Shown here piece after piece: positions 11,061 to 52,036 of a stretch of 61,398 bases of DNA. The DNA is from Clostridia bacterium (GTDB taxonomy: Bacteria; Bacillota; Clostridia; TANB77; CAG-508): positions 1-61,398 of the forward strand of contig JAAWGB010000005.1 of assembly GCA_022795075.1 (NCBI GenBank), in the 5' to 3' direction. Both the position numbers and the translations under genes were made by a program. Below the pieces are notes generated by a model. That model made no database searches, was not told the DNA's origin, and saw only the letters and a list, made by a program, of their open reading frames with translations. Numbering within the stretch: the first letter of the stretch is position 1; each line of letters begins with the position of its first letter.

Positions 11061-11256
11061 ACTGTCAACCTAAGATATTTTCTAAAAAAGGAAGACAGTT
11101 CGTTCAAGTAATTTTCGAAGAAATTCTAAATCCATTTTATGGCACCCTTCCACGCCAAAGGCGTGAACTCTTTCCATAAAATGAATAAAGAATTTCTATT
11201 CTTAATTACTTTCAATTCACTGTCTTCCTTTTTAGAAAATATCTTAGGTTGACAGT
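11061..11256 (+). repeat. Palindromic intergenic element family A, copy 1
   Basis: Shared core CGTTCAAGTAATTTTC..ATGGCACCCTTCCACGCCAAAGGCGTGAACTCTTTCCATAAAAT..TTCAATTCAC inside ~38-bp inverted arms. Confidence 0.9.
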
Positions 11257-11279
11257 ATCGATTAAATAGGAGGTAACAA

Positions 11280-13073
11280 ATGATACCAAGAAAAAAGAAA
11301 AAAGTAATCATCATAGTATCAATTATAATATTATTAATCATTATGACAATAAGCTTAATTTTATTATATATTAACACAGATTTATTTCGCTCCCATGCAA
11401 CTTTATTTGCCAAATACTTTGGGCAAAATGTAGAAAATATAGATACCATTTATCAAAAAATGGGAGAAAGTGAACTAAATCAGATTATACGACAAAATAA
11501 ATATACTACCAAGACCCAAGTGAAAATGAACTACATAGAAGGAAAAGGAACTACTTTAGAAAATACGCAAAATTCTATCAATCAATTAAAATTAAATATA
11601 GAAGGGCAAACTGACAAAAACAATCAATATAATTACCAAGACATCCATTTAATAAGAGATGATGAAAAGTTAGCAGAGGTAGAATATTTACAAGACGGAA
11701 ATATACATGGCATTCGATTTTCAGATTTATTTAATCAGTATGTAGCAGTTAATAACGAAAATTTAAGAAGTTTATTTGAGAAAATGGGTTATGATGAACA
11801 AAGCTTAGCAAACCTACCAAACACAATCGAATTTGATAAAAATATTAAGAGTAACTTTCAACTTACACAAGAAGAAAAACAAAAGATACAAAACGATTAT
11901 ATTAATATAATAAAGGAAAATGTATCAAAAGAAAAATTTTCGAAACAAACAAAACAAATGATTCAAATAGATGAAAAAAATATAAATGCCAATGCCTATA
12001 CTTTGACTGTAACAAAAGAACAAATGAATAACCTTATTATTAAAATGTTAGAACAAATCAAACAAGATGAAATTATTTTAACAAAAGTTGACCAAATTCA
12101 ATCATTGTTACCAATGTATCAAACAAAAAGCTTAAAAGAACAATTTATTAGTAAGATAGATGATACAATCACTAAAATAACAAGAAATAATATAGGACAA
12201 GAAGAATCAAAGATAACCGTTTATGAAAATAATCAAATGACTTTAAAAACGGTTATACAAAATGAGAACTATGAAATTCATATAGATGTATTACCATTAG
12301 AAGAAGAACATTATTTGCAAATATCTTACCAAGATTCAACAGTTGAACAATTTATGACATATAAAAGAACAAAAGAGGAGACTAATATAAGTTTAAAAAA
12401 TATAAAAGATAAGAAAACAGCCCAATATAGTTTATTAATTGGCGAAGAGATCAATAATAATAATGGTACAAAAAGAATAGAAGCTAGCTATGAAGATGAC
12501 TCGAATAGATTAGAAACAACTATTGAACAAGAGATTCGTATCGTAAATGGATTTGACAAACAAGTTAAAATGGACCATGAAAATTCTATTAATTTAAGTG
12601 AATTGGAAAAAGAACCATTGCAATCTATTTTGCAACAAGTAAATGCTCAAGTTTCTCAGAAAGTAACAGAAATAACAACAAATGACATGAAAGTAGAAGA
12701 TTTGTGGAAAATATTAAAAACACTTGGATTGGTAAAAGAAGAACAGATATTTGAAAATATTGGAATTACTGAAACGGAAAAGACTAGGTTTAATTCTAAA
12801 TTTGAAATTTTACAAGGAGAAAATTTAGGAAAAGAAGAAATATTAAATTTAATTGATGCTGTTAAAGGAAATTTAGTAGAAATAGAAGTTATACAAAATA
12901 ATGAACTGAAATTAAAGTTAGAACGTACGAAAAAGACAGAAGAAGTGGCTACTAGTTTGATTTCTTTTGTTGAAAAAAATCAAAACAAAAAATATAATGC
13001 TAAAGTAGAATATGATGAACAAACAGGTTTAGTAAAAGACATTGTACTAACAATGATACAGGAAAGTAGGTAA
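11280..13073 (+). CDS. Hypothetical membrane-anchored extracellular protein, 597 aa
   Basis: GGAGG RBS; basic N-terminus plus one hydrophobic helix; no recognisable motif. Confidence 0.8.
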   Translation: MIPRKKKKVIIIVSIIILLIIMTISLILLYINTDLFRSHATLFAKYFGQNVENIDTIYQKMGESELNQIIRQNKYTTKTQVKMNYIEGKGTTLENTQNSINQLKLNIEGQTDKNNQYNYQDIHLIRDDEKLAEVEYLQDGNIHGIRFSDLFNQYVAVNNENLRSLFEKMGYDEQSLANLPNTIEFDKNIKSNFQLTQEEKQKIQNDYINIIKENVSKEKFSKQTKQMIQIDEKNINANAYTLTVTKEQMNNLIIKMLEQIKQDEIILTKVDQIQSLLPMYQTKSLKEQFISKIDDTITKITRNNIGQEESKITVYENNQMTLKTVIQNENYEIHIDVLPLEEEHYLQISYQDSTVEQFMTYKRTKEETNISLKNIKDKKTAQYSLLIGEEINNNNGTKRIEASYEDDSNRLETTIEQEIRIVNGFDKQVKMDHENSINLSELEKEPLQSILQQVNAQVSQKVTEITTNDMKVEDLWKILKTLGLVKEEQIFENIGITETEKTRFNSKFEILQGENLGKEEILNLIDAVKGNLVEIEVIQNNELKLKLERTKKTEEVATSLISFVEKNQNKKYNAKVEYDEQTGLVKDIVLTMIQESR

Positions 13074-13239
13074 AAATTTTTTATAGAAACGAAAAACATA
13101 GATATAATTCCCAATTACTTATAGGCGAAATTAGAATTTAGGAACTTATGATGCTGGTGTATAGGGGGCTATGCAAATGGATATGATTCTTGATAATCCT
13201 ATAAAATAAAGCTATAATAATAAAAAATGGAGGGATAAG

Positions 13240-14076
13240 ATGGAACAAACCAAAAAGAAAATCATTCGAATAATGATAGTAATAATAGTCTGTATTACAT
13301 TTTTTATAAATGTTAGTTATCAAGAAGTGCAAGCTCTAACAGATGAAAAATTAATACAAGAACAAATAGAAAATTATGCAAGGGAAACCAATATTGATCC
13401 GAATAATATTACCAAAGAAGATATTTTAAAAATATATGATGAAATAAATAAACAATATACCAATGAACAAATAGCCAATATAATAGAAGAAAATACAGAA
13501 AAATTGCAACAACAAGGTATTAGTAAAGAAGTTATAGTAGCTGGTACAGAGTTTATAAGAACCACCGAAAGTCAAGGTATAAGAGATATTATAGAAAATG
13601 ATTTAGATTTAGAAGAAATCAAAGAAAAAATAGAACAAGGCTATACACCCAATCAAATTCTAAAAAGTGTAGTAAAAGAAACGCCAACAGAAAAGAAAAT
13701 AGAAGTAGGAATTAAATTGTTATTAGCTAATAAAATTGTAAAAATAATTTTAATCTTATGTGTCATTTTATTTATTTATGGAACCGTTCTTAGATGGCGA
13801 ATTTATACAAAAGCAGGTAAACCTGGTTGGGCAGCAATCATACCTGTTTATAGACAAATTGTTATGTACCAAGTTTGTGGATTATCTGCTTGGCTCATGT
13901 TACTTTGGTTAATACCAGTGTTTGGTTGGTTAGTTATGTTAGTAATTGCCATTATGAAAAGATTTTGTTTAGCAAAAGAATTTGGAAAAGGTAGTTTATT
14001 TGGATTTGGTTTATTATTTTTACCACTAATTTTTCAGACGATACTAGCCTTTCAACCTAAAGTTGATGAAACTTAA
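13240..14076 (+). CDS. Membrane protein with C-terminal DUF5684-like domain
   Basis: Signal peptide; WRIYTKAGKPGWAAIIPVY and AKEFGKG motifs. Confidence 0.75.
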   Translation: MEQTKKKIIRIMIVIIVCITFFINVSYQEVQALTDEKLIQEQIENYARETNIDPNNITKEDILKIYDEINKQYTNEQIANIIEENTEKLQQQGISKEVIVAGTEFIRTTESQGIRDIIENDLDLEEIKEKIEQGYTPNQILKSVVKETPTEKKIEVGIKLLLANKIVKIILILCVILFIYGTVLRWRIYTKAGKPGWAAIIPVYRQIVMYQVCGLSAWLMLLWLIPVFGWLVMLVIAIMKRFCLAKEFGKGSLFGFGLLFLPLIFQTILAFQPKVDET

Positions 14077-14083
14077 GAAATGA

Positions 14084-14875
14084 GTGAAATACATTATGAA
14101 TAAAAATGGAAAAATAGGAATTTTTGATTCAGGTATTGGTGGCGTAACAGTCATGCGTGAATTGATGAAAGTTCTACCAAAAGAAAATTATTACTATTAT
14201 AGTGATTCGAAAAATAACCCTTATGGAGATAAAACAGAAGAAGAAATTAAGAAATTATGTGATAATATTGTACAATATTTGATACAACAGGATTGTAAAA
14301 TGATTGTCATAGCTTGCAATACAGCAAGTGCTAAAGCTGCAACATTTTTACGACAAAAATATCCAAAGATTAATATAGTTGCAATTGAGCCAGCTTATAA
14401 AATGGTATATGACTATGCCTATGATAAACCAACTTTAGTAATGGCAACAAAAGGCACCATTGAAAGCGAAAAATTTAATTTATTGTTAGAAAAATATGAT
14501 AATCATAAGACTTTTTTAATTCCCTGTGTAGGATTAGCAGATAGAATAGAAAAGGGAGATTTGGAACAAATTAATGAATATTTGAAAGCCATAATTGGGA
14601 ATTATAAAAATAAAGTGGAAAATGTAGTATTGGGTTGTACACATTATCCTTTAATTGAGCAAGAAATTGAAAAGGTATTAGGTAAAGTGAATTTTTTTAA
14701 TGGAGCACCTAATTTAGCTAAACATTTGAAAACAATTTTAGAACAAAAGAATTTATTAAAGGATGGAGAAGGTAAAGTGGAGTTTGAAGATTCACAAGGT
14801 TTGCTAGAAAAAAAGATAAGGTTTTTTGAGATATTAGAAAATATAGGAGGAACTAGAAGTGAAATACAAAAGTGA
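14084..14875 (+). CDS. murI: Glutamate racemase
   Basis: IGIFDSGIGG, IACNTAS, VLGCTHYP. Confidence 0.97.
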   Translation: MKYIMNKNGKIGIFDSGIGGVTVMRELMKVLPKENYYYYSDSKNNPYGDKTEEEIKKLCDNIVQYLIQQDCKMIVIACNTASAKAATFLRQKYPKINIVAIEPAYKMVYDYAYDKPTLVMATKGTIESEKFNLLLEKYDNHKTFLIPCVGLADRIEKGDLEQINEYLKAIIGNYKNKVENVVLGCTHYPLIEQEIEKVLGKVNFFNGAPNLAKHLKTILEQKNLLKDGEGKVEFEDSQGLLEKKIRFFEILENIGGTRSEIQK

Positions 14876-15068
14876 AAAGGGTTCAGTTACTTTATTTGTT
14901 ACATTGTCATGTTTTTTTATTGTTATGATGCTTGCTATTTATGTGATGAATGTAGAAAATAAAAAACAAGCACAAAATAAAGAAATTGAGCAAATTATGC
15001 GAAGTTATGAAATAGATGAACAAGATATGGAGAAAGTATACAGTAAAATAGTTAATGAAAATCAATAA
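14859..15068 (+). CDS. Small protein with prepilin/Tad-like N-terminus
   Basis: GGAGG RBS plus GTG; KSEKG|SVTLFVTL followed by a hydrophobic helix. Confidence 0.6.
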   Translation: MKYKSEKGSVTLFVTLSCFFIVMMLAIYVMNVENKKQAQNKEIEQIMRSYEIDEQDMEKVYSKIVNENQ

Positions 15069-15094
15069 ATAGTTTTTTTAATACATGAGAGAAT

Positions 15095-15281
15095 TGACCA
15101 AAAAGTAAATCAGAATTTAGAAAAAGGTTTCGTTTAAGAAAATTTTCGTAGAAATTCTAAATTCATTTTATGGCACCCTTTCAAAACAAGTTTGAACATT
15201 TTCCATAAAATAATTTAAGAACTTCTACCTCAATTTCTTTCAATTCAACCTTTTTCTAAATTCTGATTTACTTTTTGGTCA
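15095..15281 (+). repeat. Palindromic element family A, copy 2
   Basis: Core with TTCAAAACAAGTTTGAACAT loop variant; ~35-bp inverted arms TGACCAAAAAGTAAATCAG.. Confidence 0.9.
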
Positions 15282-15319
15282 GTTTTTGAGTAATGGCAAT
15301 ATATATAGATGAAAATATT

Positions 15320-15754
15320 TTATAAATATTTTTTTAATTGTTCAACTGTGTTTTCTTGAAATTGAACAAATTCAGTCAAAATATTTTTAACTGGTTCATC
15401 TGTATTTGGATTATGATTTAGAAGTTTCACACCTTTAATAATTCCCATATTGGTTCCTTGTAACATCATTTCAGCAATTTTAGAATTATTTTTATCATCC
15501 ATTGTGTTAAATTCAACACTCATCCAACCCATAGCCTTTTGCATAGGATTTAGTTCTTTTGGAAAATCGTCATAATTTGTTAGTTCATTATTTACCTTAT
15601 TTAAAATCTCATTATATTTGTCATATTGAAATTTTAAATCTTTTTTAAAGTCGTCATCTTGAATTTTTTCGGAAACATTAGAAATGGAATCCATTCCCAT
15701 TTTGATTCCTTTGTTAATTTCATTTAAAATATAACCTGGACTATCCATATTCAT
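15320..15754 (-). CDS. Hypothetical helical protein, possibly ferritin-like and spore-associated
   Basis: AAGGAGG RBS; KGIKMG..KIAEMMLQGTNMG; upstream GCATA..TATATTA resembles a forespore sigma promoter. Confidence 0.7.
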   Translation of the reverse strand: MNMDSPGYILNEINKGIKMGMDSISNVSEKIQDDDFKKDLKFQYDKYNEILNKVNNELTNYDDFPKELNPMQKAMGWMSVEFNTMDDKNNSKIAEMMLQGTNMGIIKGVKLLNHNPNTDEPVKNILTEFVQFQENTVEQLKKYL

Positions 15755-15835
15755 TCCTCCTTAATTTTTTTTAATATAACCAAAAATAAGAAAAATATGC
15801 TATATCTATCATAATGCACTTGCTAAATGTTCGTA

Positions 15836-16016
15836 TATAAAATAATTTGCTACCCAAGAAAAAACGTGAATTGAAAGAAATTGAGGTAGAAATTCTTAAA
15901 TCATTTTATGGAAAATGTTCAAACTTGTTTTGAAAGGGTGCCATAAAATGAACTTAGAATTTCTTCGAAAATTTTTTTGAACGAACGGTTTTTCTTGGGT
16001 AGTAAATTATTTTATA
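15836..16016 (-). repeat. Palindromic element family A, copy 3 (core reversed)
   Basis: Reverse-complement core; arms TATAAAATAATTTGCTACCCAAGAAAAA / TTTTTCTTGGGTAGTAAATTATTTTATA. Confidence 0.9.
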
Positions 16017-16116
16017 GAAAGGACTGATAAGTATTTTTTCATGTTCACAAAGAATTCACAAAAAAATTGTTAGATAGTATTGACAAGAGAGAAAAACGGG
16101 TATAATATATAAGAAG

Positions 16117-16143
16117 TTAGCAATCAAACCAAAAGAGTGCTAA
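16117..16143 (+). promoter_or_regulatory. CIRCE element (HrcA operator)
   Basis: TTAGCAATC-N9-GAGTGCTAA, one mismatch to consensus, just after TTGACA (16080) and TATAAT (16101). Confidence 0.93.
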
Positions 16144-16157
16144 AAGAGGTGAAAAAG

Positions 16158-17168
16158 TTGTTAGATGAAAGAAAAAAGAAAGTCTTACAAGCCATAGTAG
16201 AAGAATATATTAATACAGCAGAGCCAGTAAGTTCAAATGCACTAACACAAAATCATGGATTAGAATGTAGCAGTGCTACTATTCGAAATGAAATGTCAGA
16301 GTTAGAAAAAGGTGGATTTTTAGATAAAACACATACCTCAAGTGGAAGAATTCCATCAGCAAAAGGATATCGCTACTATGTAGATGAGCTATTAAATGAA
16401 GAAGACATCAGTATAGAAGAAATCAAATACATCAGTTCAAAATTAGAAACCAAAGTAAACGAAATTGAAGACCTAACCAAAATAGCGGCAAATACCATAT
16501 CAGAAGTAACCCACTATACAACCGTATCCATTGGCCCAAAAGCAACCACCCAATTAATAGAAGAAATCAAATTTGTTTTACTAGGTACAAGAATGATAAT
16601 GGCAGTTATCTTAACAGACAACGGACTAGTCAAAGAAACCATTATAAAATTTGATGAAGATATCAACGAAAAGCAAGTACAAACCATGAACTATATGTTT
16701 AATAACAAGCTAAAAAATCAACCAATTCAAACGATAGACCGACCATTAGAAGAATACTTATATGATGAAATGACCTATAGCATTCATGTTATAAAGCCAA
16801 TCATTGAACAAATCAAAAAAGTATTAGAAGAAGACAATAAAATCTATTTAGAAGGAGCCAATAAATCCTTTGACTTGCCAGAATTTAACAGTTTAGAAGT
16901 AGCCAAAAATTTTATTAACATTTTAGACACCAAAGAAATTGTAGCAGACATGCTAAATTCAGGATTAGCAGAAGATATCAATGTATATATTGGAGAAGAA
17001 AACGAACAGCAAGAACTAAAAGATTTTAGTGTTGTCACATTTAAACACAAAGTAAATGGTCGTGACGTAGGAACAATCGGAATCATAGGACCAAAAAGAA
17101 TGGACTATTCAAAAGTTATTTCCGTTATGAAATACATCAACAAAAAACTAAAAGAAATAGATGAATAA
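16158..17168 (+). CDS. hrcA: Heat-inducible transcription repressor
   Basis: SSATIRNEM, HTSSGRIPS, GIIGPKRMDY; TTG start after GAGGTG. Confidence 0.97.
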   Translation: MLDERKKKVLQAIVEEYINTAEPVSSNALTQNHGLECSSATIRNEMSELEKGGFLDKTHTSSGRIPSAKGYRYYVDELLNEEDISIEEIKYISSKLETKVNEIEDLTKIAANTISEVTHYTTVSIGPKATTQLIEEIKFVLLGTRMIMAVILTDNGLVKETIIKFDEDINEKQVQTMNYMFNNKLKNQPIQTIDRPLEEYLYDEMTYSIHVIKPIIEQIKKVLEEDNKIYLEGANKSFDLPEFNSLEVAKNFINILDTKEIVADMLNSGLAEDINVYIGEENEQQELKDFSVVTFKHKVNGRDVGTIGIIGPKRMDYSKVISVMKYINKKLKEIDE

Positions 17169-21175: not shown

Positions 21176-21420
21176 AGGTTACCATTCACCAACATCATTT
21201 AAAATTACAAAAGACTAGAATAACAATATTGATAAGGATTTGAATGTGACCGAAATAGCTTTAGAAATATTAAAAATACAGGTGAAAGGCTCCTGTTTTC
21301 GGGTATAGTTCACCTGTATTTTTAATATTTCTTAGTGTCATGTAGGGTAACCGAAAATCTGAATCAATATTGTTATTCTAGTCTTTTGTAATTTTAAATG
21401 ATGTTGGTGAACGGTAACCT
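21176..21420. repeat. 245-bp palindrome downstream of dnaJ (not family A core)
   Basis: ~58-bp outer arms AGGTTACCATTCACCAAC.. plus inner AGAAATATTAAAAATACAGGTGAA / TTCACCTGTATTTTTAATATTTCT. Confidence 0.9.
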
Positions 21421-23599: not shown

Positions 23600-23627
23600 A
23601 ATGAAATTATTTAGGGGGCGAAAAATC

Positions 23628-33210: not shown

Positions 33211-33212
33211 AT

Positions 33213-36033: not shown

Positions 36034-36050
36034 AAGAATAGGTGTATAAT
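36022..36050 (+). promoter_or_regulatory. Consensus sigma-A promoter for typA
   Basis: TTGACA-17-TATAAT. Confidence 0.8.
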
Positions 36051-36155
36051 TTTATAAGTTTTTAAAAGAGAAAAGAGGACTGGAAGACAGTCCTTTCTAT
36101 ATTGAAAGAAGGAGTGTTTTCTAGTTTCTTTAAAAATAAAAAAGGGGTAATAAAA

Positions 36156-37967: not shown

Positions 37968-38097
37968 TAAAAATTTTAAGATTATAAAGACTAAATTTGA
38001 ATAGTTAATACTTTTGTTAACTTAAATCTTATAAAAAAATAGAAAATAGCTTAGGGTCAAGCTAATTTTCAAAGAAATTCTAATAAAGGGAGGACAA

Positions 38098-38706: not shown

Positions 38707-38728
38707 ACATTGGAATCACTTTATTTTT
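38682..38728. terminator. Bidirectional hairpin terminator
   Basis: AAAATAAAGTGGTTCCAGTG ... CATTGGAATCACTTTATTTT. Confidence 0.75.
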
Positions 38729-38825
38729 ATAGAATGTAATTTATTTATAGTATTTTATTTTTATAATCGAAATTTTAAATGTATTTGTAATTGTTAGTAA
38801 TCATATGAAAAATAAATGATAAATT

Positions 38826-40517: not shown

Positions 40518-40660
40518 AAGTCCTCCTAATTTGTAGTTTTATGTAATTATATTTTACCATAATAAAAAATAAAATTCAAATAGGGTCTTGAAATTTTATT
40601 GACAATTCATTAGAATGCTTATATAATTTATCAAAAACAAAGAGAAAATGGGAGAAAAAA

Positions 40661-41891
40661 ATGAAAAAAATAGAATTATTAGCACCAGCAGGATCCTTTG
40701 AAAAAGCAAAAATAGCCTATCTTTATGGAGCTGATGCAGTGTATTGTGGAACTTCTTCTTTATCATTAAGGGCAAGAGCAGATATGAAAGATGATGACTT
40801 AGAAAAAACGATAAAATATGCACACCAGATAGGAAAAAAAGTATATGTAACATTAAATATTTTTGCTTGGGATGAAAAATATGATGAAATAATAAAAATG
40901 GCGAAAAAATTAGAAGAACTAAAACCAGATGGCATCATTGCAGCAGATGTAGGAGTCATTGAAACATTAAAAAAACAAGCACCTTCTGTTCCAATTAATA
41001 TTAGTACACAAGCCAATATTATAAGTTTACAGGATTGTAATTTTTGGTATCAAAATGGAGCTAAAAGGGTCATTATGGCTAGAGAAATGAACAAAAAACA
41101 ATTACAATACATCATGGAAAATAAGCCAAAAGACTTAGAAGTAGAAATTTTTGTACATGGAGCAATTTGTTTTGCTTTTTCAGGAAGATGTTTTTTAAGT
41201 GATTTCTTATCTTGTAGAAGTGCTAATTTAGGAGATTGTGTACAAAGTTGCCGTTGGTCCTATAATTTATATGCAGAAGAAAAAAATAATCCTGGCGAAT
41301 ATATGCCAATTGAAACAGATGAACATGGGACTAGTATTTTTTCTTCTAAAGATTTGTGTTTAATTAAGGAATTGCCAGAGATTATTGAAATGGGAATAGA
41401 TAGTTTAAAAATAGAAGGAAGATTGAAAACAGAATATTATATAGCAAGTGTAATAAATGCTTATCGAAATGCGATTGATGATTATGAAAAAAATCCTCAA
41501 ACTTATGATTATAATAAATATTTAAAAGAGTTAGAAAAAGTAAAAACAAGAGGCTTAACAACTTTTTATTTTAATGATAGAAAAAATAAAGATATTCAAG
41601 AATATAGTGGCAGACAGTATAATGAAAATTATGAATTTGGTGGAAAAGTTGTGACTTATTCAGAAGAAAAATCTATTATAGAAATTAGAAATAAACTACA
41701 AGTAGGAGATGTGTTGGAAATCATTGTTCCAAACAAAATAGAACCTTATGAATTTAAAATTAAGCAATTGTGGAAGGATGAAACTAATGAGGAGATTATG
41801 GCGGTAAGTCCACGGTGTAAAGGGACAAAAGGTTAAGATGAGATTGCCAATTAAGTGTGAACAAGATTGGATTATTAGAAGGAAAAAATAA
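40661..41891 (+). CDS. U32 family peptidase-like protein (TrhP-like), 409 aa with +1 shift at CGG 41813-41815
   Basis: ELLAPAGS, HGAIC..SGRC, CVQSCRW, SLKIEGR; +1 tail GVKGQKVKMRLPIKCEQDWIIRRKK*; TTGACA-17-TATAAT upstream. Confidence 0.88.
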
Positions 41892-41986
41892 AGTTTTGTA
41901 AGTTGATAAATAAGAATGGAAAAAATTTGAATTTTTTTATGAAATATGTTATAATATAAAATATCAAAGCCTAAGGAGGTTGGCAT

Positions 41987-42148
41987 ATGAAAGTTACTGT
42001 TAAGAACAAGACTTACAAAGTAGTGTCAAGAGGATATCGGAGCTGGGAAGAGGCGGAAAAGGATGTTCCTAGAAAATTTCGAAGGAGAGGAAGTACAACG
42101 TACTATGATAAGAAAACTGAAAAATGGTACGTGATAGCTCCAGAATAG
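41987..42148 (+). CDS. Orphan 53-aa basic protein, stand-alone cassette
   Basis: TTGAAT-17-TATAAT with TG (41927-41955), AAGGAGGT RBS, MKVTVKNKTYKVVSRGYRSW..WYVIAPE*. Confidence 0.7.
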   Translation: MKVTVKNKTYKVVSRGYRSWEEAEKDVPRKFRRRGSTTYYDKKTEKWYVIAPE

Positions 42149-42156
42149 CAGTATCC

Positions 42157-42197
42157 GGGAAAAGGGAATGTTTTACGACATTTCCCCTTTCCCTTTT
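42157..42197. terminator. Hairpin terminator between convergent genes
   Basis: GGGAAAAGGGAATG ... CATTTCCCCTTTCCC followed by TTTT. Confidence 0.75.
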
Positions 42198-42240
42198 ATA
42201 TGAAAATTAATACAAATTACAAAAAAAGTCTTTTTGTAAT

Positions 42241-43039
42241 TTAGTGTTGGCTTTCTAGTAAAGAAGCAACAATAAAACCGTAGTATGCAAGATAAAATAC
42301 CAATTATCACGTCAAGAGAAGATGAAAAGGTAGGCAATAAAACAAAAATAGAACCAACCGTAAAACCAATTATACAATAAAAGGTAGGACCATAAAAACG
42401 AGTTAGTAAAAAATTTGTTAATTTTAGAAAGCAAAATCCACCAATAATAACGCCAATAAGAATGGGAATTAAAACAGGAAAATGTAAGGTAGAAACAGAA
42501 GAAAGATAAATAGGGTAAATACCCAATAGCATCAGAATAATGGTACTACTAACACCTGGTACAACAATTCCAATAGACATCAAAAATCCACCTAAAACAA
42601 GATATAGAAAACTGGCATTTTCTAAAGTTTGAATGGCTACAATGTTTTCCCCAAAAATACAGCTAATACCAATTATAAGGGCAAACAAAAAGAAAAACCA
42701 GTAACAGGGCTTAAAGGTTTGCTTTTTATTAATTTCTTTTAATAAGGCAGGGATACTTCCTAAAATTAGTCCAATAAAAATGGATTTTGTTTGGATGGGG
42801 AATTGATAAAGAGAGTAGTTTAAAAGATTGCCAAATAAGACAATTCCAATTCCAGCACCGATAACAAGGGGAAAAAGAAATTTTAAGTTAGTTTTTACAT
42901 CATTAAAAAAGTTTAAAATACTATCAATTAATTTTTCGTATAATCCAAAAATAACACAAAATACACCACTGCTAATTCCTGGAAGAATGGCTCCACTACC
43001 AATGGCAATTCCTTTTAAAGTGTCTAATAAAAATTTCAT
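42241..43039 (-). CDS. DUF368 family membrane protein, needs +1 shift at CGG 42280-42278
   Basis: ILPGISSG and VVPGVSS repeats; CTA C GGT TTT completes the last helix ILSCIL-GFIVASLLESQH*; frame 0 runs into the terminator. Confidence 0.85.
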
Positions 43040-43117
43040 GATATACACCTCATTTAATTGTATGAGTAAAGAAAAATTACATGATAAATTTTTATTTAAT
43101 AGGCTTATTAATTTGAT

Positions 43118-43318
43118 GCTGCCCAAGAAAAAAATAGATTCTAAAAAAAGAAAAACAGTTCGTTCAAGTAATTTTCATAGAAATTCTAACATTATTTTAT
43201 GGCACCCTTCCACGCCAAAGGCGTGAACTCTTTCCATAAAATAATGAATAATTTCTACTTCAATTACTTTCAATTCACTGTTTTTCTTTTTTTAGAATTT
43301 ATTTTTTTCTTGGGCAGC
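43118..43318 (+). repeat. Palindromic element family A, copy 6
   Basis: Core as in copy 1; arms GCTGCCCAAGAAAAAAATAG.. / ..TTTTTTCTTGGGCAGC. Confidence 0.9.
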
Positions 43319-43440
43319 GTGCTAAATAAGAAGAATAAAATTCATTTATATTTGTTTGTACTGAGAGGTCAGTTCAATCGTTTTTTGAGTAAATTTATGA
43401 TATAAATATAAAATAATCCATAACAAACGAGGAGAAATTT

Positions 43441-45162
43441 ATGAGTGAAAGACAATATATAAAAATAACAGACTTAAAAGACATGTTAAAAAAATCTGGT
43501 AAACAATATGCAGATAAAATAGCCTATCAAATCAAAACGAAAGAAGGAAACTATCAATATATAACCCATAAAGAAGTACGCCAAAAAATTGACGCTTTAG
43601 GAACAGCCTTAGTTGAAATGGGGCTAAAAGACAAAAGAATAGCAGTAATAGGAGAAAATCGATGGGAATGGGAAATTGCCTATTTATCTATTGTATGTGG
43701 AACAGGCACAGTTGTTCCATTAGATAAATCTTTACCAGAAAATGAGCTAAAAAATTTAATTGAGCGTTCAGAAGTAGAAGCTATTTTTTATACTAAAAAA
43801 TATGAAACCATATTAGAAAATGCGAAAAACGAAGGAATTGGTCAATTAAAACATCTTATATCAATGGACTTAGAGCAACATACAAAAGGAATTTATGCAC
43901 AAAAAGAATTAATTGAAAAAGGAGAACAATTAATTAAACAAGGAAACCAAGAATTTATAAAGGCAAAAATTGATCATGAAAAAATGAGTATCATGTTATT
44001 TACATCAGGAACTACGTCAGCTTCCAAAATTGTAGCATTATCCCATAAAAATTTATGTTCTAACTTAATGGATATTGCATCTATTTTAGACGTGGATTGT
44101 GAAGATGTATTTTTATCTTTTTTACCATTGCATCATGTATTTGAGTGTACAGTGGGCTTTTTATTTGCTTTATACAAAGGAGCCAAAACCGTTTTTTGTG
44201 ATGGAATTAGGCACATTCCAGAAAATATGAAAGAATACAAAGTTTCTGTTATGGCATCTGTACCAGCAATTTACGAAAGAATTTTTAAAATGATACGAAA
44301 ACACATAGAAAACCAAGGAAAACTAGAGGAAATTTTACAAAAGGAAGAACAATATAAAAATCATTCAATGGAAGAAAAAAGAAAAGTATTTCAAGAAATT
44401 CATGATATGTTAGGTGGCAATATCAAACTTTTAATTAGTGGAGCAGCCAGTTTAGACTCCAAAATTGAAGAAAAGTATCGATTGCTAGGATTAAATATAG
44501 TACAAGGATATGGTTTAACAGAAACCTCACCAGTTATTGCCATTGGAACCAATCAACATTATAAATTAGGATCAATTGGAAAATGTGTGCCAAGTGTAAA
44601 AGCAAAAATAATTAATACTAATCAAGAAGGAATTGGTGAATTAATTGTACAAGGCCCCAATATCATGTTAGAGTATTTTGGAAATCGAATGGATACCAAA
44701 AAAGCATTGGTAGATGGCTGGTTCTATACAGGAGATTTAGCCAAAATTGATGATGAAGGCTATATTTTTATTTGTGGAAGAAAGAAAAGTGTAATTGTTT
44801 TAAAAAATGGTAAAAATATTTTTCCAGAAGAAATGGAAAACTTAATCAATCGAATTGAAGGAATAGAAGAATCTTTTGTCTTTGGTAAACAAATGTCTGA
44901 AGATAAAAATGATATCAAAATTTTTGCTAAATTAGTTTATAATCAAGAAATTATAGAAAATACCTATAAAGTACATGGCGAAGATGAAATTTTTGGAGCA
45001 ATTAATGAAAAAATAAAAGAAATCAATAAAATGATGCCACATTATAAGGCTATAAAGGGAATTGTATTAACACAAGAACCTTTGATAAAAACAACGACCA
45101 ATAAAATAAAAAGACAACAAAATTTAGAACAAATGAGAAAAGAGGAAATGGTATGCAACTAA
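43441..45162 (+). CDS. Long-chain fatty acid-CoA ligase (AMP-binding)
   Basis: FTSGTT, QGYGLTETSP, WFYTGD, GKNIFPEE. Confidence 0.92.
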   Translation: MSERQYIKITDLKDMLKKSGKQYADKIAYQIKTKEGNYQYITHKEVRQKIDALGTALVEMGLKDKRIAVIGENRWEWEIAYLSIVCGTGTVVPLDKSLPENELKNLIERSEVEAIFYTKKYETILENAKNEGIGQLKHLISMDLEQHTKGIYAQKELIEKGEQLIKQGNQEFIKAKIDHEKMSIMLFTSGTTSASKIVALSHKNLCSNLMDIASILDVDCEDVFLSFLPLHHVFECTVGFLFALYKGAKTVFCDGIRHIPENMKEYKVSVMASVPAIYERIFKMIRKHIENQGKLEEILQKEEQYKNHSMEEKRKVFQEIHDMLGGNIKLLISGAASLDSKIEEKYRLLGLNIVQGYGLTETSPVIAIGTNQHYKLGSIGKCVPSVKAKIINTNQEGIGELIVQGPNIMLEYFGNRMDTKKALVDGWFYTGDLAKIDDEGYIFICGRKKSVIVLKNGKNIFPEEMENLINRIEGIEESFVFGKQMSEDKNDIKIFAKLVYNQEIIENTYKVHGEDEIFGAINEKIKEINKMMPHYKAIKGIVLTQEPLIKTTTNKIKRQQNLEQMRKEEMVCN

Positions 45163-45735
45163 GGAATTTGACAACAAAAATAATAGGAAAGAAAGTAATA
45201 TTTTATGAGCAAATTGATTCAACACAATTAGAAGTTTGGAGAAGAATTGAAAAAAATAATATCCAAAATGGAACCATTATTTTAGCAGATAAACAAACAA
45301 ATGGCAAACGGAACACATGGTAGAAAATGGTATACAGATGAAAATAATAATATTGCTTTTTCATTGTTCTTACAAGCTAATTGTCAAATTAGTCAATTAG
45401 AAAACTTAACCCTTATGATTGCCGAAACGATAGTAGAAGTGTTTGAAAATTTGTATGATATAAGCCTTACCATAAAATTTCCAAATGATTTGGTATACCA
45501 AGGAAAAAAATTAGGTGGCATTTTAACACAAACGAAGTTACAAGGTGAGTTGGTAAAATATATTGTAATTGGGATAGGTATGAATACGAATCAAGAGAAT
45601 TTTGAAGAAGAAATAAGAAAAATTGCTACATCTATTAAAAAAGAGTTTAAAATTGAAATAAATAATCAAAAAGTAATAACAAAGTTTTGTAATTTATTTG
45701 AACCTAAAATTAAAAATTATTGTAACCTATTTTAG
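45153..45735 (+). CDS. birA: Biotin protein ligase without HTH, ~193 aa, needs +1 shift at CGG 45309-45311
   Basis: IDSTQ and ADKQTNGK in frame 0 join GTHGRKW, KFPND and KKLGGIL in +1. Confidence 0.9.
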
Positions 45736-45877
45736 AAAAAATAATAGAAACTTTTTATAACAGAATTTAGTAGAAGATAATGATTAATTATAAAGAATGA
45801 TTTAAAAAGAAAAATAGATAGTTTCGTAATTTTTATAGAAATTCTTGTAAACTTAGTTAGGAAAGGAAGAAAGTAAA

Positions 45878-46814
45878 ATGAAATTAGGATTTTTGTTTCC
45901 GGGTCAAGGTTCCCAAAGTATTGGAATGGGTCAAGACTTATATGAAAAATATGAAATTGTAAAAGAAGTATATAAAAAAGTACAAGAATTAACAGGAGTA
46001 GATATTGCCCAAATTACGTTTAAAGGGGAAGAAGAAGTATTAAATGAAACAAAACATACACAGTTAGCCATTTTGACAATGAGTTTGGGAATTTTGGAAA
46101 TTTTAAAACAGCATAATATTTATGCAGAAGTTACTAGTGGACTAAGTTTAGGGGAATATGCTGCTCTTATTTGCAGTCAAGCTATTTCTTTTGAAGAAGG
46201 TGTGAAATTAGTTCAAAAAAGAGGACAATATATGCAAAATTTAGCTCCAAAAGGTGAATGGCTAATGGCTGCTATTATGGGTATGAATGAAGAAGAAGTA
46301 AAAGAGATTTGCCAACAAGTAACAAAAGGATTTGTAGTTCCTGCTAATTTTAATACAACTGGACAAATTGTTATTTCTGGAGAAAAACAAGCAGTTGAAC
46401 AAGCAGAAGAAGTGGCCAAACAAAAGGGTGTAAAAAAAGTAAAGATATTAAAAACAGCAGGACCTTTTCACACTGAAAAATTAATAGAGGCATCTAAGGC
46501 ATTAAGAAAAGAGCTAGAAGGTGTAACAATTCATGACTTTACTATACCAGTTGTTAAAAACTTAGATGGAAGGCTTTATAACAAACTAGAGGATGTGAAA
46601 GATATTTTGGCTAGACATATCATTTCTCCAGTTAGGTTTTCAAATAGTTTAGAAACGATGCTAAATATGGGAGTCGATACTTTTGTTGAAATTGGTCCAC
46701 GGAAAAACATTATCAGGATTTGTAAAACGATTCGATACCAATAAAGAGGTTACTATTCTAAATATTAACAATGTAGAAAGTTTGGAAAAGGTATTGCAAA
46801 TGTTGGCTAAATAG
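45878..46814 (+). CDS. fabD: Malonyl-CoA:ACP transacylase, 311 aa, needs +1 shift at CGG 46700-46702
   Basis: FPGQGSQ, GLSLGEY, AGPFH; FVEIGP-GKTLSGFVKR restored in +1. Confidence 0.93.
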
Positions 46815-46946
46815 AAGTTAAAAATAGATAAATTTTTGGATTAAAATAATAGGGAAGTAGGCGGTAAAAAAATCAGCCAAGTAATCTTAAAGAAGAGGTA
46901 TTTTTAAGTTTATAGATTAAAATCATAAAAGGAGATTGAAAAAATA

Positions 46947-47681
46947 ATGAATAAAGTAGCATTAATTACAGGAGCAACAAGAGGTATTGGAAGACAAATA
47001 GCCATTACTCTTGCCAAAGAAGGTTATGATATTGCTCTAAATTATCGTAAAGAAAATGAAGATTTAGAAAATACGAAAAAAGAAATAGAAGAAAATAAAG
47101 TTAAGTGTTTTGCTGTTAAGGGAGATGTTTCTAATTTTGAAGATTGTGAAAAAATAGTGAAACAAGTAATCGAAAATTTTGGAAAAATAGATGTGTTAGT
47201 TAATAATGCTGGAATAACAAAAGATATGTTATTAATGAGAATGAAAAAAGAGGATTTTGAACAAGTTATTGATATTAATTTGGTGGGGACTTTTAATGTG
47301 ACAAAAAATGTTATTAATCATATGTTAAAAGCTCGTACTGGCAGGATAATTAATATTTCTTCTGTAGTAGGTGTTTCTGGCAATGCAGGACAAACAAATT
47401 ATTCGGCATCAAAGGCAGGCATGATAGGATTTACTAAAAGTTTGGCAAAAGAGGTTGCATCAAGAGGTGTTTTGGTAAATGCAGTGGCACCAGGATTTAT
47501 TGAAACAACTATGACAGAGGTTTTGAAAGATGAGATAAAAGAGGAAATAGCTAAAGGAATTCCCCTAAAACGAATGGGAACGCCACAAGATGTGGCTAAT
47601 GTTGTAAAATTTTTGTGTTCAGAAGATAGTTCGTATATGACAGGGCAAGTCTTACAAGTAGATGGTGGTATGTTAATGTAA
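46947..47681 (+). CDS. fabG: 3-oxoacyl-ACP reductase
   Basis: TGATRGIG, NNAGITKD, YSASKAG. Confidence 0.96.
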   Translation: MNKVALITGATRGIGRQIAITLAKEGYDIALNYRKENEDLENTKKEIEENKVKCFAVKGDVSNFEDCEKIVKQVIENFGKIDVLVNNAGITKDMLLMRMKKEDFEQVIDINLVGTFNVTKNVINHMLKARTGRIINISSVVGVSGNAGQTNYSASKAGMIGFTKSLAKEVASRGVLVNAVAPGFIETTMTEVLKDEIKEEIAKGIPLKRMGTPQDVANVVKFLCSEDSSYMTGQVLQVDGGMLM

Positions 47682-47700
47682 AAACAAATTGAAAGGAAAA

Positions 47701-47729
47701 AGCCCCTACACCTTCAGAGGGTAGGGACT
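47701..47729. terminator. GC hairpin after the orphan gene
   Basis: CCCTAC ... GTAGGG, similar to the 7870 hairpin. Confidence 0.55.
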
Positions 47730-47741
47730 CTTAAACAAGTT

Positions 47742-48035
47742 CTAAGGAATTGGTGGCACCCATATATTAGCAACTGTAATTTGATAGGATGGAGTGAAGG
47801 TTTTATTCATAGTAATTTCTCCTTCAATTCCCAAATCGTTTAAAATTGCAAGGGCAGTTTGTGTTTCATAGGTAGAACCTGTTGACTGAATGATAAAATT
47901 GTTGGGAATGGTTCTGTTGTAGAAAACTTGTCCCACAAGTTGGCTAAGAATATCCAACTTGCTACCTTTTAATGGGTCACTGCTTTGGTCGATGGTGTCC
48001 CGAAGGGCAATTGCCCTTTCAAAAAAATCTTTCAT
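47742..48035 (-). CDS. Orphan hypothetical protein, 97 aa, antisense within the fab cluster
   Basis: AAGGAGGT RBS; TTGTAT-17-TATACT with TG (48067-48095). Confidence 0.7.
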   Translation of the reverse strand: MKDFFERAIALRDTIDQSSDPLKGSKLDILSQLVGQVFYNRTIPNNFIIQSTGSTYETQTALAILNDLGIEGEITMNKTFTPSYQITVANIWVPPIP

Positions 48036-48112
48036 ACTGATACCTCCTTGGTATTTTTATGTAAATAGTATATCATAAATTTGAAACAAATACAATAGAA
48101 AGGAATAGAAAG

Positions 48113-49351
48113 ATGGAAAAAAGAGTTGTTATTACAGGTTTAGGAGCTATTACTCCGATTGGAAAAAATGTAGGAGAAACATGGAAAGGAATTCAAGAAA
48201 AAAAATGTGGAATTGACAAAATTACCTTATTTGATACAACTAATTTTAAAACAAGTTTAGCAGCAGAGGTAAAAGAATATGATGCAACAAAATATTTTGA
48301 AACAAAACAAACGAAACGATTAGATAGAAGTTCACAATTTGCCATTATAGCAGCAAAAGAAGCATTTCAAGATAGCGGTTTAACAGAAGAAAACACCGAT
48401 TTTGAAAGAGTGGGTGTATTTATCAGTTCTGGTATTGGAGGATTAAAAACTCTTCAAGAACAATGTGAAGTTAATTGCATAAAAGGAAATAATCGAGTGT
48501 CACCAATGTTTATTCCTATGACAATTGCCAATATGCCAGCTGGAAATGTTGCCATTGAGTTAGGAGCAAAAGGAGAGTCAATTTCGATTGTTACAGCTTG
48601 TGCCTCTTCTACTCATGCAATTGGGGAGGCTTATAAAACCATTCAATATGGTTCAGAAGATGTGATACTAGCAGGTGGAACAGAGGCATCTATTTGTGAA
48701 GTTGGTATGGCAGGTTTTGAAAATATGAAAGCATTATCAAGTAGCAAAAATAAAAATAGAGCAAGTATTCCATTTGACAAGGAAAGAAGTGGGTTTGTCA
48801 TGGGAGAAGGAGCAGGTGTTTTAGTATTAGAAGAATTAGAACATGCTAAAAAAAGAGGAGCTAACATTTATGCAGAAGTAATTGGTTATGGAGCTACTTC
48901 AGATGCTTATCATATTACTTCACCAGCACCAAATGGAGAAGGTGGAGCAAGAGCCATGAAAAGAGCGATAGAAGACGCCAATATGAAACCTGAAGAAATT
49001 GACTATATTAATGCACATGGTACATCGACTTATTTAAATGATTCTTGTGAAACAATGGCAATTAAATCAGCTTTAGGAGAAGCAAGCAAAAAGGTAATGG
49101 TAAGTTCAACAAAAGGAAATATTGGTCATTTATTAGGAGCAGCAGGAGGGGTAGAGGCAATTTTTTGTGCCAAAGCAATTGAAAATAATATAATTCCTCC
49201 TACTATTCATTATGAGGTAAAGGATGAGGAATGTGATTTAGATATTGTGCCAAATGAAGTAAGAAAGGCAGAAGTTAAAGTTGCTATGTCAAATTCTTTA
49301 GGTTTTGGTGGTCATAATAGTAGCATTATTTTAAAAAAGTTTGAAAAATAG
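48113..49351 (+). CDS. fabF: Beta-ketoacyl-ACP synthase II
   Basis: TACASS, NAHGTST, GHLLGAAG, SNSLGFGGHN. Confidence 0.97.
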   Translation: MEKRVVITGLGAITPIGKNVGETWKGIQEKKCGIDKITLFDTTNFKTSLAAEVKEYDATKYFETKQTKRLDRSSQFAIIAAKEAFQDSGLTEENTDFERVGVFISSGIGGLKTLQEQCEVNCIKGNNRVSPMFIPMTIANMPAGNVAIELGAKGESISIVTACASSTHAIGEAYKTIQYGSEDVILAGGTEASICEVGMAGFENMKALSSSKNKNRASIPFDKERSGFVMGEGAGVLVLEELEHAKKRGANIYAEVIGYGATSDAYHITSPAPNGEGGARAMKRAIEDANMKPEEIDYINAHGTSTYLNDSCETMAIKSALGEASKKVMVSSTKGNIGHLLGAAGGVEAIFCAKAIENNIIPPTIHYEVKDEECDLDIVPNEVRKAEVKVAMSNSLGFGGHNSSIILKKFEK

Positions 49352-49401
49352 TAAGTGTAAAATGATTTTAACAAAACAAGGCTAAGAAGGAAGGTAAGAT
49401 T

Positions 49402-49851
49402 ATGGAATATGAAAAAATAAAACAATTAATGGAAGATATGGGAAATTCAAAATTGACATCTATTGATATTGATTTTCCAGATGGTACTAAGATTCGTATG
49501 AAAAAAGAAATAAACGAAGTGATAGTAGAAAATTTACCAACCAAACAATTGGTAAAAAAGGATGATATAAAAGATATTAAAATTGAAAATGAACAAGAAA
49601 TGAAAGAAGAGGAAAAGGGAAATGTTGTAAAATCTCCTATGGTTGGAACTTTTTATGCCAAGTCTTCTCCTGATAGTGAACCTTATGTGACAATTGGTCA
49701 AAAAGTGAAAAAGGGCGATGTTCTTTGTATTATTGAGGCTATGAAATTAATGAATGAAATAGAGTCTGAGTTTGATGGAGAGATTGTAGAAATTTTAGTA
49801 AAAGATGAAGAAACCGTTGAATATGGTAAGCCATTGTTTGTTATAAAATAG
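49402..49851 (+). CDS. accB: Biotin carboxyl carrier protein
   Basis: SPMVGTFY, EAMKLMN. Confidence 0.96.
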   Translation: MEYEKIKQLMEDMGNSKLTSIDIDFPDGTKIRMKKEINEVIVENLPTKQLVKKDDIKDIKIENEQEMKEEEKGNVVKSPMVGTFYAKSSPDSEPYVTIGQKVKKGDVLCIIEAMKLMNEIESEFDGEIVEILVKDEETVEYGKPLFVIK

Positions 49852-49928
49852 ATTTAGCTGGCGGTAGATATTAAAATTACGTAATTATATCACAAATTAA
49901 ACATAAAATCAAAGAAAGAAGTGAAAAT

Positions 49929-50351
49929 ATGTTAAACAAAAATCAAATTAAAGAAATCATACCACAAAGAGAACCATTTTTAATGATAGACGAAGTAGAA
50001 GAATATAAGCCAGGAGAAAGTGCCATAGCCTATAAACAAGTAAGAGAAGAAGAATGGTATTTTAAAGGGCACTTTCCAGGAAATCCAATCATGCCAGGAG
50101 TACTAATTACAGAAAGTTTGGCACAAACAGGAGCAATAGCCATACTTAGTTTAGCAGAAAATAAAGGAAAAAATGCTCTATTTGGCGGAATTGACAAAAT
50201 GAAATTTAAAAAAATGGTAGTACCAGGAGACACCTTAAAATTAGAAGTAAAAATTATCAAACAAAAAGGACCAATTGGAGTAGGAGAAGCAATTGCAACT
50301 GTGGAGGGAAAAATAGTAGCAAAAGGAGAATTAACTTTTGCAGTTGTATAG
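49929..50351 (+). CDS. fabZ: 3-hydroxyacyl-ACP dehydratase
   Basis: GHFPGNPIMPGVLITESLAQ. Confidence 0.96.
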   Translation: MLNKNQIKEIIPQREPFLMIDEVEEYKPGESAIAYKQVREEEWYFKGHFPGNPIMPGVLITESLAQTGAIAILSLAENKGKNALFGGIDKMKFKKMVVPGDTLKLEVKIIKQKGPIGVGEAIATVEGKIVAKGELTFAVV

Positions 50352-50455
50352 TTAAAAATAAAAGATATGAAAAAGGTTTGCGAAAAAATCATAAACTTTT
50401 GGAGTGAAGTTAGTAGTTGTGAGTTTAAAATGAGATAAAGAAAGGAATTAAGAAA

Positions 50456-51802
50456 ATGAATAAAATTTTAATTGCTAATCGTGGTGAAATTGCTGTGCGA
50501 ATAATCAGAGCTTGTAAAGAAATGAATTTAAAAACAGTAGCTGTTTATTCCGAAATAGATAAAGACGCTATGCACACTCGTTTAGCAGATGAAGCAATCT
50601 GTATTGGACCCAAAGACCCTAGAAAAAGTTATTTAAATTTCAAAAATATTATAGAAGCAGCTAACATAACAGGTGCAGATAGTATTCATCCAGGATTTGG
50701 TTTTTTATCAGAAAATAGTCAATTTGCTAAAATATGTGAAGAATCTAATATTAAATTTATTGGACCAGCTTACAGCGTAATAGAAAAAATGGGGAATAAA
50801 TCCAATGCCAAGGAATTAATGAAATCAGCAGGAATACCTGTTATAGAAGGTTCAGACGGAAGTGTAAAAGGATTAAAAGATGCTATTAAAATAGCTAATA
50901 AAATTGGTTATCCAGTTATGCTAAAAGCAGCAGCAGGTGGTGGAGGAAAAGGAATTCGAATTGTTTATTCAGCCGAAGAATTAGAAACTAATTATAACAT
51001 TGTCAAACAAGAAGCCAAATTATCTTTTAATGATGACGAAATTTATTTAGAAAAATTTATAAAAAATCCTCGTCATGTAGAAATTCAAGTATTAGCAGAT
51101 GAACATGGAAATGTTGTTCATTTAGGGGAAAGAGATTGTTCGATTCAACGTAAAAATCAAAAAATAATAGAAGAAACACCTTCTACAGCAATTGATGATA
51201 AACTAAGAAATAAAATGGGAGAAGCAGCCATTAAAGCAGCAAAAGTAGCAAATTACACTAGTTGTGGTACAGTTGAATTTTTGGTAGATAGTGAAAAGAA
51301 TTTTTATTTTATGGAAATGAATACGAGAATTCAAGTAGAACATCCCATTACAGAAGAAAGGACAGGAATTGATATTGTAAAGGCTCAAATAAAAATAGCA
51401 GCAGGTGAACCTCTAAAAATTAAACAAAAAAATATTACATTTAGGGGTTATAGTATAGAATGTAGAATTAATGCGGAAAATCCAAGTAAAAAGTTTATGC
51501 CATGCCCAGGAATTATTACAGGATTGAATTTACCTGGGGGAAATGGAATAAGGGTAGATACAGCTATTTATGAGGGATATACAATACCTTCTTCTTATGA
51601 TTCGATGATTGCCAAAATTATTACACATGGAGATACAAGAAATGAGGCAATTAGTAAAATGAAAAGAGCTTTAGAGGAAATTGTAATAGAAGGGGTAGAT
51701 ACCAATATTGATTTTTTATTTAAAATTATCAAAAATCCTAATTTTATTAGAGGAACTTTTGATACATCTTTTATTGAAAAAGAAGGATTGGCAAATTTCT
51801 AA
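50456..51802 (+). CDS. accC: Biotin carboxylase
   Basis: IANRGEIA, GGGGKGIR, EMNTRIQVEH. Confidence 0.97.
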   Translation: MNKILIANRGEIAVRIIRACKEMNLKTVAVYSEIDKDAMHTRLADEAICIGPKDPRKSYLNFKNIIEAANITGADSIHPGFGFLSENSQFAKICEESNIKFIGPAYSVIEKMGNKSNAKELMKSAGIPVIEGSDGSVKGLKDAIKIANKIGYPVMLKAAAGGGGKGIRIVYSAEELETNYNIVKQEAKLSFNDDEIYLEKFIKNPRHVEIQVLADEHGNVVHLGERDCSIQRKNQKIIEETPSTAIDDKLRNKMGEAAIKAAKVANYTSCGTVEFLVDSEKNFYFMEMNTRIQVEHPITEERTGIDIVKAQIKIAAGEPLKIKQKNITFRGYSIECRINAENPSKKFMPCPGIITGLNLPGGNGIRVDTAIYEGYTIPSSYDSMIAKIITHGDTRNEAISKMKRALEEIVIEGVDTNIDFLFKIIKNPNFIRGTFDTSFIEKEGLANF

Positions 51803-51841
51803 TTTCTAAAAGTAATGGTATGGTGAATGGATCCAACAAAG

Positions 51842-52036
51842 ACTGTCCCACTAAAATATTTTTTCAAACAATTGGACAGTGCATGGAAAATAATTGAGAT
51901 AGAAATTCTTAATTCATTTTATGGAAAGAGTTCACGCTTGGCGTGGAAGGGTGCCATAAAATGGATTTAGAATTTCTTCGAAAATTAGCTTGACCAAACT
52001 GTCCAATTGTTTGAAAAAATATTTTAGTGGGACAGT
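51842..52036 (-). repeat. Palindromic element family A, copy 7
   Basis: Reversed core; 39-bp perfect arms ACTGTCCCACTAAAATATTTTTTCAAACAATTGGACAGT. Confidence 0.9.

Follow-up and report, generated by a model that had tools for sequence, protein, structure and literature searches.

We report a family of intergenic hairpin repeats in the genome of an uncultured, low-GC Clostridia bacterium (GTDB lineage Bacteria; Bacillota; Clostridia; TANB77; CAG-508), seven copies of which lie on contig JAAWGB010000005.1 of GenBank assembly GCA_022795075.1 (61,398 nucleotides, analysed whole and here called the window). Each copy consists of a conserved core bounded by two inverted arms that pair closely with one another. 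Copies have been inserted in a lineage-specific manner, the two arms of a copy change in a paired fashion, and signals tied to an RNA strand are lacking. With moderate confidence, we read the repeat as a dispersed, non-coding, mobile hairpin that operates at the level of DNA, inserts between genes without target duplication, and has its arms kept paired by templated copying from one arm to the other.

An abundant family of hairpin repeats

A repeat scan of the window recovered all seven copies of a palindrome that had been noted in an earlier reading of the letters without database searches (the sequence-only reading). They match one another both directly and as inverted repeats, and, as that reading had it, occur in both orientations, with the core lying one way in three copies and the other way in four. 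A genome-wide count had also been proposed. A profile of the core was searched against the draft genome (G000; 1.77 Mb in 89 contigs, 96% complete; contig labels beginning with C refer to this genome), giving 122 matches that resolve into 66 loci. The full core with both flanks was present at 58 of the 66, and all 58 were intergenic, with none in a real gene. Several copies coincide with contig ends. The metagenome sequencing runs that contain the DNA of the window are from mouse gut. The element had been suggested to be undescribed; it matches no Rfam family, and a search of the literature, which covered papers without their supplements, found no description of it. The family is real, abundant, non-coding and, apparently, undescribed.

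Aligned in a common orientation, the cores of the seven window copies measure ~125 bp and show two apical variants, one in the cores at 11095, 43155 and 51877 and the other in those at 15125, 15864, 33331 and 35232, in agreement with the core of ~120 bp and two loop variants originally described. At every locus the core profile scores ~100 bits on one strand and ~25 bits on the other, and the core therefore has a clear polarity. Among full copies genome-wide, between-copy identity is 0.83 for the core and 0.59 for the arms, and information per column is near maximal in the core and low in the arms. This conserved centre with variable arms is the reverse of the pattern of a MITE (miniature inverted-repeat transposable element), as had been proposed. 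The whole element, 197 nt, folds at −92 to −103 kcal/mol, compared with −28 to −36 kcal/mol for shuffled sequences (z ~ −18).

The two arms of a copy change fast yet together

The extent of the arms was determined by extending the palindrome outward from the core at the 58 full loci. In the window the arms span 27–120 nt and are 93–97% complementary within a copy, which supports the earlier description of near-perfect enclosing inverted arms of ~30–120 bp. Genome-wide, arm length has a mode of 31–38 nt and a median of 34 nt, with 41 of the 58 copies standard, 13 longer (up to 120 nt) and four shorter. Within a copy the arms are 94.3% complementary, whereas the similarity of arms between copies is 0.59, and that of shuffled arms 0.50. 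Across 1431 pairs, how alike two copies are in their arms is almost independent of how alike they are in their cores (r = 0.19), and pairs of copies with 95–97% identical cores have arms that are only 57–85% alike. The centre is thus strongly conserved, and both arms change fast yet together.

The statement that arms are largely unrelated between copies was upheld in part: similarity lies little above that of shuffled arms, but the arms have a modal length, fall into two classes (the second ~70 nt) and share a weak consensus, comprising the motif CTGTCAAC at their ends and, further in, a run of A leading into GGAAGA. The end motif occurs 44 times in the genome, 24 of them at these elements. 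A profile of the standard arm matched the genome 47 times, with 45 matches adjoining a core. The other two are weak, core-less, arm-like remnants (C61:29558-29589 and C64:15134-15164), each with one full arm and only the last bases of its partner, which may be deletion or excision scars. Related arms can be followed between copies. The copies at 15836 and 43118 have an arm motif in common, with ~20 nt present or absent in both arms together, and C40:27090 and C40:50147 are related copies with related arms. Paired substitutions together with paired insertions and deletions are best explained if one arm is copied from the other.

Similar behaviour was seen in two other, unrelated palindromic families of the same genome, in which identity is 0.92 and 0.94 between the arms of a copy, 0.67 and 0.72 between the arms of different copies, and 0.86 and 0.90 in the centre. 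This hints at a general process and not a quirk of a single element. Family B is represented in the window at 21176–21420 by 66-nt arms, 94% complementary, around a 113-nt centre, and has ~69 loci genome-wide, with one copy beside a Y1 transposase gene on contig C14. Family C (intra-arm 0.94, inter-arm 0.72) lies at 5158–5360, with 41-nt outer arms and an inner 39-nt hairpin, and has ~23 loci genome-wide.

Core pairing is maintained across species

A cross-species alignment of the core was assembled from 31 sequences of 16 genomes. Between species only the inner ~80 nt of the core are conserved. In the alignment 97.4% of cells are paired, compared with 88.0% after shuffling (none of 500 shuffles reached the observed value) and 36–55% when partners were slid. 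Double changes occur in 11 of the 23 core pairs, with 61 double-change cells against three one-sided cells. Such jumps from one Watson–Crick pair to another without wobble intermediates, alike on either strand, are expected of templated DNA copying and not of RNA-level selection. By contrast with the stems, two pyrimidine-rich unpaired stretches flanking the apical stem are almost invariant across species, and therefore argue for sequence-specific recognition of the centre. In one copy, C52:18240 (C52:18206-18396), the apical ~35 nt are inverted relative to the outer core, the breakpoints falling in ATTTTATGG, a stem of 9 bp, and in its complement; this shows that the inverted repeats of a hairpin do exchange with one another.

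Copies are inserted without target duplication and turn over rapidly

A clean pair of filled and empty sites was found for the copy at 15836–16016. The related genome G050 can be aligned here, at 85–87%, over both the flanking gene and the promoter region of hrcA, and lacks ~250 nt that include both arms. Likewise, the rlmN spacer measures 17–60 nt in some relatives, which indicates that the 365-bp palindrome at 33213–33575 is an insertion as a whole; other relatives have hairpin repeats of different kinds inserted there. Two orthologous spacers were tested in ten relatives, none of which has the core at either, and none of 21 copies from seven relatives lay at a site that is filled in the host genome. 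Of 80 other species of the genus, 35 have the core, most of them many times over, and none of the 16 genomes taken from four further families of that order has it. When a genome collection was scanned with RlmN, three of 80 loci had a core-like match, one of them an independent insertion of another subfamily into the same spacer. The element turns over faster than species diverge.

Among 25 copies anchored on the end motif, no target duplication of at least 3 bp was detected (observed maximum three matches, permuted-partner mean 3.25), which agrees with the earlier observation that none was visible. Of 57 copies, 33 lie in tandem, 10 in convergent and 14 in divergent spacers, a distribution that fits spacer length (p = 0.17), and a preference for terminator positions was ruled out on this ground. 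Core orientation shows no bias relative to replication as judged by GC skew (35 versus 28). A composite transposon around the gene at 15320–15754 was also ruled out, as G050 and G021 have that gene at its site and lack both copies. In genome G065, two inverted copies of the element on its contig C14 (locus L035, 1950–4050) bracket ~1.7 kb with a phage-like open reading frame (ORF) of 268 amino acids; the 2.2-kb stretch is absent from the orthologous 86-nt spacer of the host genome, and one of the two copies sits between inverted stretches that resemble repetitive extragenic palindromic (REP) sequences.

Public contigs from three DNA runs and one RNA run were compared over 32900–52100. Contigs of the three DNA runs, from three studies, pass through the same flanks and arms into the cores, and all contigs end inside cores and for that reason display no flip, empty site or transcript; coverage of the elements in the RNA run was not usable. 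A metagenome scan with the protein encoded between two copies returned 80 loci, the best at 93% protein identity, with one weak core match.

Outer layers of long arms and possible nested insertion

In the 13 long-arm copies the outer parts of the arms are unique in the host genome, except at C40:23654, where the outermost 38 nt on both sides are a GGGGAC-type REP found at many other loci. A copy in G065 likewise lies between two inverted REP-like stretches. On account of the REP outer layers in these two copies, some long arms can be attributed to landing in the centre of an existing palindrome. A possible though not probable extension of this observation is that the core with its ~34-nt arms lands preferentially in the apex of existing palindromes (for example REP doublets, hairpin repeats or terminators), the outer arms being the stems of the target. 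Such nesting would be an addition to arm-to-arm copying, confined to the 13 copies with long arms. It is favoured by the layered structure of the copy at 33213–33575, in which separate inverted pairs (I17 and I7) surround the core, by three copies that abut family B repeats (C53:9014, C54 and C82), and by the rlmN spacer, which holds different inserted hairpin repeats in different species. However, the outer arms of the other long-arm copies have no independent target copy known, unique perfect palindromes of 40–55 nt are not expected as ordinary targets, and standard arms without a core are almost absent (the two weak matches of 47).

Candidate enzymes and an improbable REPIN-like origin

An association with an HUH/Y1 transposase or a reverse transcriptase had been suggested as a check, and no such association emerged. 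The host genome has two Y1_Tnp genes, both on contig C14 and both flanked by GGGGAC-type REPs and not by the hairpin element, the nearest copy of which is kilobases away. In a set of 80 genomes of the genus, 29 of the 35 that have the core and 36 of the 45 that lack it carry Y1_Tnp, which therefore does not track the core, and genome G067 (99% complete) has cores and no Y1 match. No reverse transcriptase, DDE_Tnp_1, IS110 or TnpB match passed the cut-off in the 96%-complete draft, in which one rve fragment was found; there were 22 resolvase-domain and eight integrase-domain matches, pointing to numerous serine and several tyrosine recombinases. One of the 22 is a 562-amino-acid ORF in the window (57756–59444) with the resolvase domain of a large serine recombinase. 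A REP-like repeat of GGGGACAG type occurs in three copies at 29820–30073 and at ~19 loci genome-wide, and variants of it flank both Y1 (RAYT-like) genes on C14 in the classical REP/RAYT arrangement.

These data bear on the idea that the element is REPIN-like and moved by the RAYT-type Y1 transposases of the host, which we consider unlikely. The hairpin spans the whole element, target duplication is absent, two Y1_Tnp genes are at hand, GACAG is common to the end motif of the arms and the GGGGACAG-type REPs, and REPINs too show compensatory changes (PMC3116915). Set against this are the distance between the Y1 genes and the nearest hairpin copy, the different repeat that flanks those genes, and the distribution of Y1 across the genus, including its absence from the matches in G067. 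Moreover, REPINs have conserved ends and a variable spacer (PMC3116915), the opposite of the pattern seen here.

The arms are probably inherited with the element

The sequence-only reading had proposed that arms arise locally, for instance by fold-back synthesis that copies one flank, or else are maintained by conversion between arms or by selection at the RNA level. Arm-to-arm conversion fits best, as changes are paired and arms are nearly uncoupled from cores; the other two fared poorly. Fold-back synthesis from one flank of the target or donor, repeated at each insertion, could account for the unique outer parts of long arms and for the near independence of arm and core identity, and in one G059 copy the left arm overlaps the last codons and the stop of the upstream gene. 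Nevertheless, in the one clean filled and empty pair, which had been suggested as a way of seeing whether one arm equals the old flank, both arms of the copy at 15836–16016 are missing from the G050 site. The whole-length insertion at 33213–33575, the common consensus, modal length and end motif of the arms, the 45 of 47 arm matches that lie beside cores, and the related arms inherited between C40:27090 and C40:50147 and between the copies at 15836 and 43118 are also at odds with arms made anew from flanking DNA. Finally, none of 116 flanks matches another copy's flank beyond chance (17–25 nt) or other repeat families, by which capture of donor flanks was likewise ruled out. We therefore regard fold-back from a flank as very unlikely.

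The repeat lacks the strand signals of a structured RNA

A search of Rfam 15 at the gathering threshold matched only a 6S RNA at 60792–60983 (RF00013, 76.7 bits), and matches with E up to 10 over 10900–16200 were at chance level; the suggestion of a structured RNA thus found no counterpart in Rfam. Relative to co-directional flanking genes, the core lies in the same orientation in 15 cases and in the opposite one in 18. Among 2431 aligned arm positions there are 69 substitution mismatches, of which 21 are G·T and 26 A·C when read on the core strand, with 22 other; read on the coding strand, G·T and A·C number 17 and 10. In the window, six are G·T and three A·C on the + strand. By these counts, the earlier point about G·U-compatible arm mismatches on the + strand, whatever the orientation of the core, is not borne out beyond chance.

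A structured RNA, whether a cis-regulatory element, terminator, stabiliser or small RNA, maintained by selection on RNA folding would explain why stems covary around invariant unpaired stretches. Many copies lie ~30 nt past a stop codon, the inner arm resembles an A-run, stem and T-run terminator, and in two relatives a copy occupies the place of a terminator-like hairpin of the host genome. Even so, we give this explanation little credence, given the lack of an Rfam match, the indifferent orientation, the 14 of 57 copies in divergent spacers and the fit of the spread to spacer length, the rarity of G·U-type one-sided changes (three against 61 cells) and their lack of strand bias, and the presence of copies inside likely operons, for example between two acetyl-CoA carboxylase genes.

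Least credible of all is an origin as an ordinary DDE-transposon MITE or as an artefact of assembly: although the repeat is small, non-coding and multi-copy with terminal inverted repeats, its ends are poorly conserved, no target duplication accompanies it and the genome shows no DDE_Tnp_1 and a single rve fragment, while the agreement of contigs from three DNA runs of three studies and the recurrence of the family in 35 other species speak against an artefact. Conserved arm subfamilies with target duplications, which would have marked a classical MITE, were not found, the arm columns being of low information and the between-copy arm identity (0.59 versus 0.50) showing that terminal repeats are not conserved. 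No parent insertion sequence with the same ends was found either: 45 of 47 arm-profile matches lie beside cores, and DDE_Tnp_1, IS110 and TnpB gave nothing over the cut-off in the 96%-complete draft.

The seven window copies and their surroundings

Three copies have their core on the + strand. The copy at 11061–11256 (arms 34 nt, core 11095–11222) lies in the spacer that separates the gene of a SpoU methylase from a DUF6583 gene, that at 15095–15281 (arms 30–31 nt, core 15125–15250) in a convergent spacer, and that at 43118–43318 (arms 37–38 nt, core 43155–43280) in a divergent spacer. The remaining four are on the − strand. The copy at 15836–16016 (arms 27–28 nt, core 15864–15989) lies upstream of hrcA and is the one whose site is empty in G050. 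The copy at 33213–33575, with layered arms of ~120 nt around the core at 33331–33455, fills the spacer from rlmN to the next gene. Those at 35197–35391 (arms 35 nt, core 35232–35356) and 51842–52036 (arms 34–35 nt, core 51877–52002) separate cmk from an acyltransferase gene and a biotin carboxylase gene from a carboxyl transferase gene, respectively. Elsewhere in the window, a 1677-codon ORF at 23601–28634 contains many diverged repeats of ~230 nt and probably encodes a surface protein with repeated domains.

Discussion

In the mechanism that we favour, the centre of the element (~80–125 bp) would be recognised by some trans-acting factor, probably in folded single-stranded or cruciform DNA, and mobility may proceed via a single-stranded hairpin. 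The arms would belong to the element and be inherited with the core, with only their pairing being of consequence, and one arm would serve as template for the other, giving rise to paired substitutions and paired indels. Two settings for such copying can be envisaged: hairpin-templated repair or synthesis when the element moves, or an in-place event between the arms, by template switching or by recombination, that would also invert the core.

Several observations weigh against this interpretation. Private decay of the core, estimated as 0.73% singletons per site and as 1.77% deviations in columns at least 90% conserved, is about the same as the mismatch per arm, 1.42%. Hence the data do not require correction in place, and arms that are perfect at birth and then decay would fit equally well. 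A strain difference at 35368 in the public contigs is a single-arm change, the partner arm having no listed change. The data analysed revealed neither an intermediate in movement nor an excision product nor an enzyme; the metagenome scan yielded no close strain, and the public contigs stop within cores. In the 13 of 58 copies with unique outer arm parts, templating would explain the pairing and not the origin of the sequence, and one such outer part (33205–33334) is unmatched also in the 80 genomes of the genus. Finally, conservation of the core could reflect a host function instead of recognition for mobility.

Among known systems, the element appears to work most like a REPIN with its conservation turned inside out and its link to a RAYT removed. 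REPINs are likewise short, non-coding, intergenic and present in dozens of copies, each forming one long hairpin, with common compensatory two-sided changes and no target duplication (PMC3116915). They differ in having conserved ends and a variable spacer, the converse of the present element, and in flanking and co-occurring with a RAYT gene (PMC3116915), where here the RAYT-like genes are flanked by another repeat. Template-switch correction of imperfect inverted repeats (quasipalindromes) is an established mutational mechanism (PMC7202029). Its replication-linked copying of one arm onto the other would give just such paired substitutions and indels as are seen here. As a general mutational mechanism, it leaves the mobility and the persistent core mismatches unexplained.

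Other intergenic repeats resemble the element in outline. The ERIC/IRU sequences of enterobacteria and the Correia/NEMIS sequences of Neisseria are intergenic imperfect palindromes of ~100–150 bp that occur in both orientations and are often co-transcribed with their neighbours. Conservation in these families extends over the whole length or is found at the ends, and in Correia elements the terminal repeats are defined and accompanied by a duplication of TA. As the two families are commonly described, the present element is set apart from them by its variable ends and lack of duplication, and their hosts are far from uncultured low-GC Clostridia. The attC sites of integrons are recombination sites recognised as folded single strands, in which structure and a few unpaired bases are conserved and the stem sequence is free. 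They form cassette arrays beside an integron integrase, whereas the hairpin elements are solitary between housekeeping genes, and no cassette array was seen at them.

A bolder proposal, which we regard as doubtful, is that the family represents a new kind of hairpin replicator, in which only the central asymmetric hairpin is recognised and the arms are re-synthesised from each other at each move or flip, the element having no fixed ends, target duplication or linked transposase gene. As three unrelated palindromic families of the genome follow one pattern, the lineage might then possess a general system for mobilising or maintaining long DNA hairpins.

If the arms are self-templated, these elements would record hairpin-templated DNA synthesis as it happens naturally in bacteria, and would constitute mobile DNA of a class whose centre, and not its ends, is recognised. 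Such elements will be overlooked or broken up by repeat finders that are tuned to conserved termini. The small genomes of this genus of gut Clostridia have roughly 150 or more long hairpin repeats per 1.8 Mb, which sit inside housekeeping operons and promoter regions and break assemblies, and the conserved core offers a handle for finding the protein that binds it.

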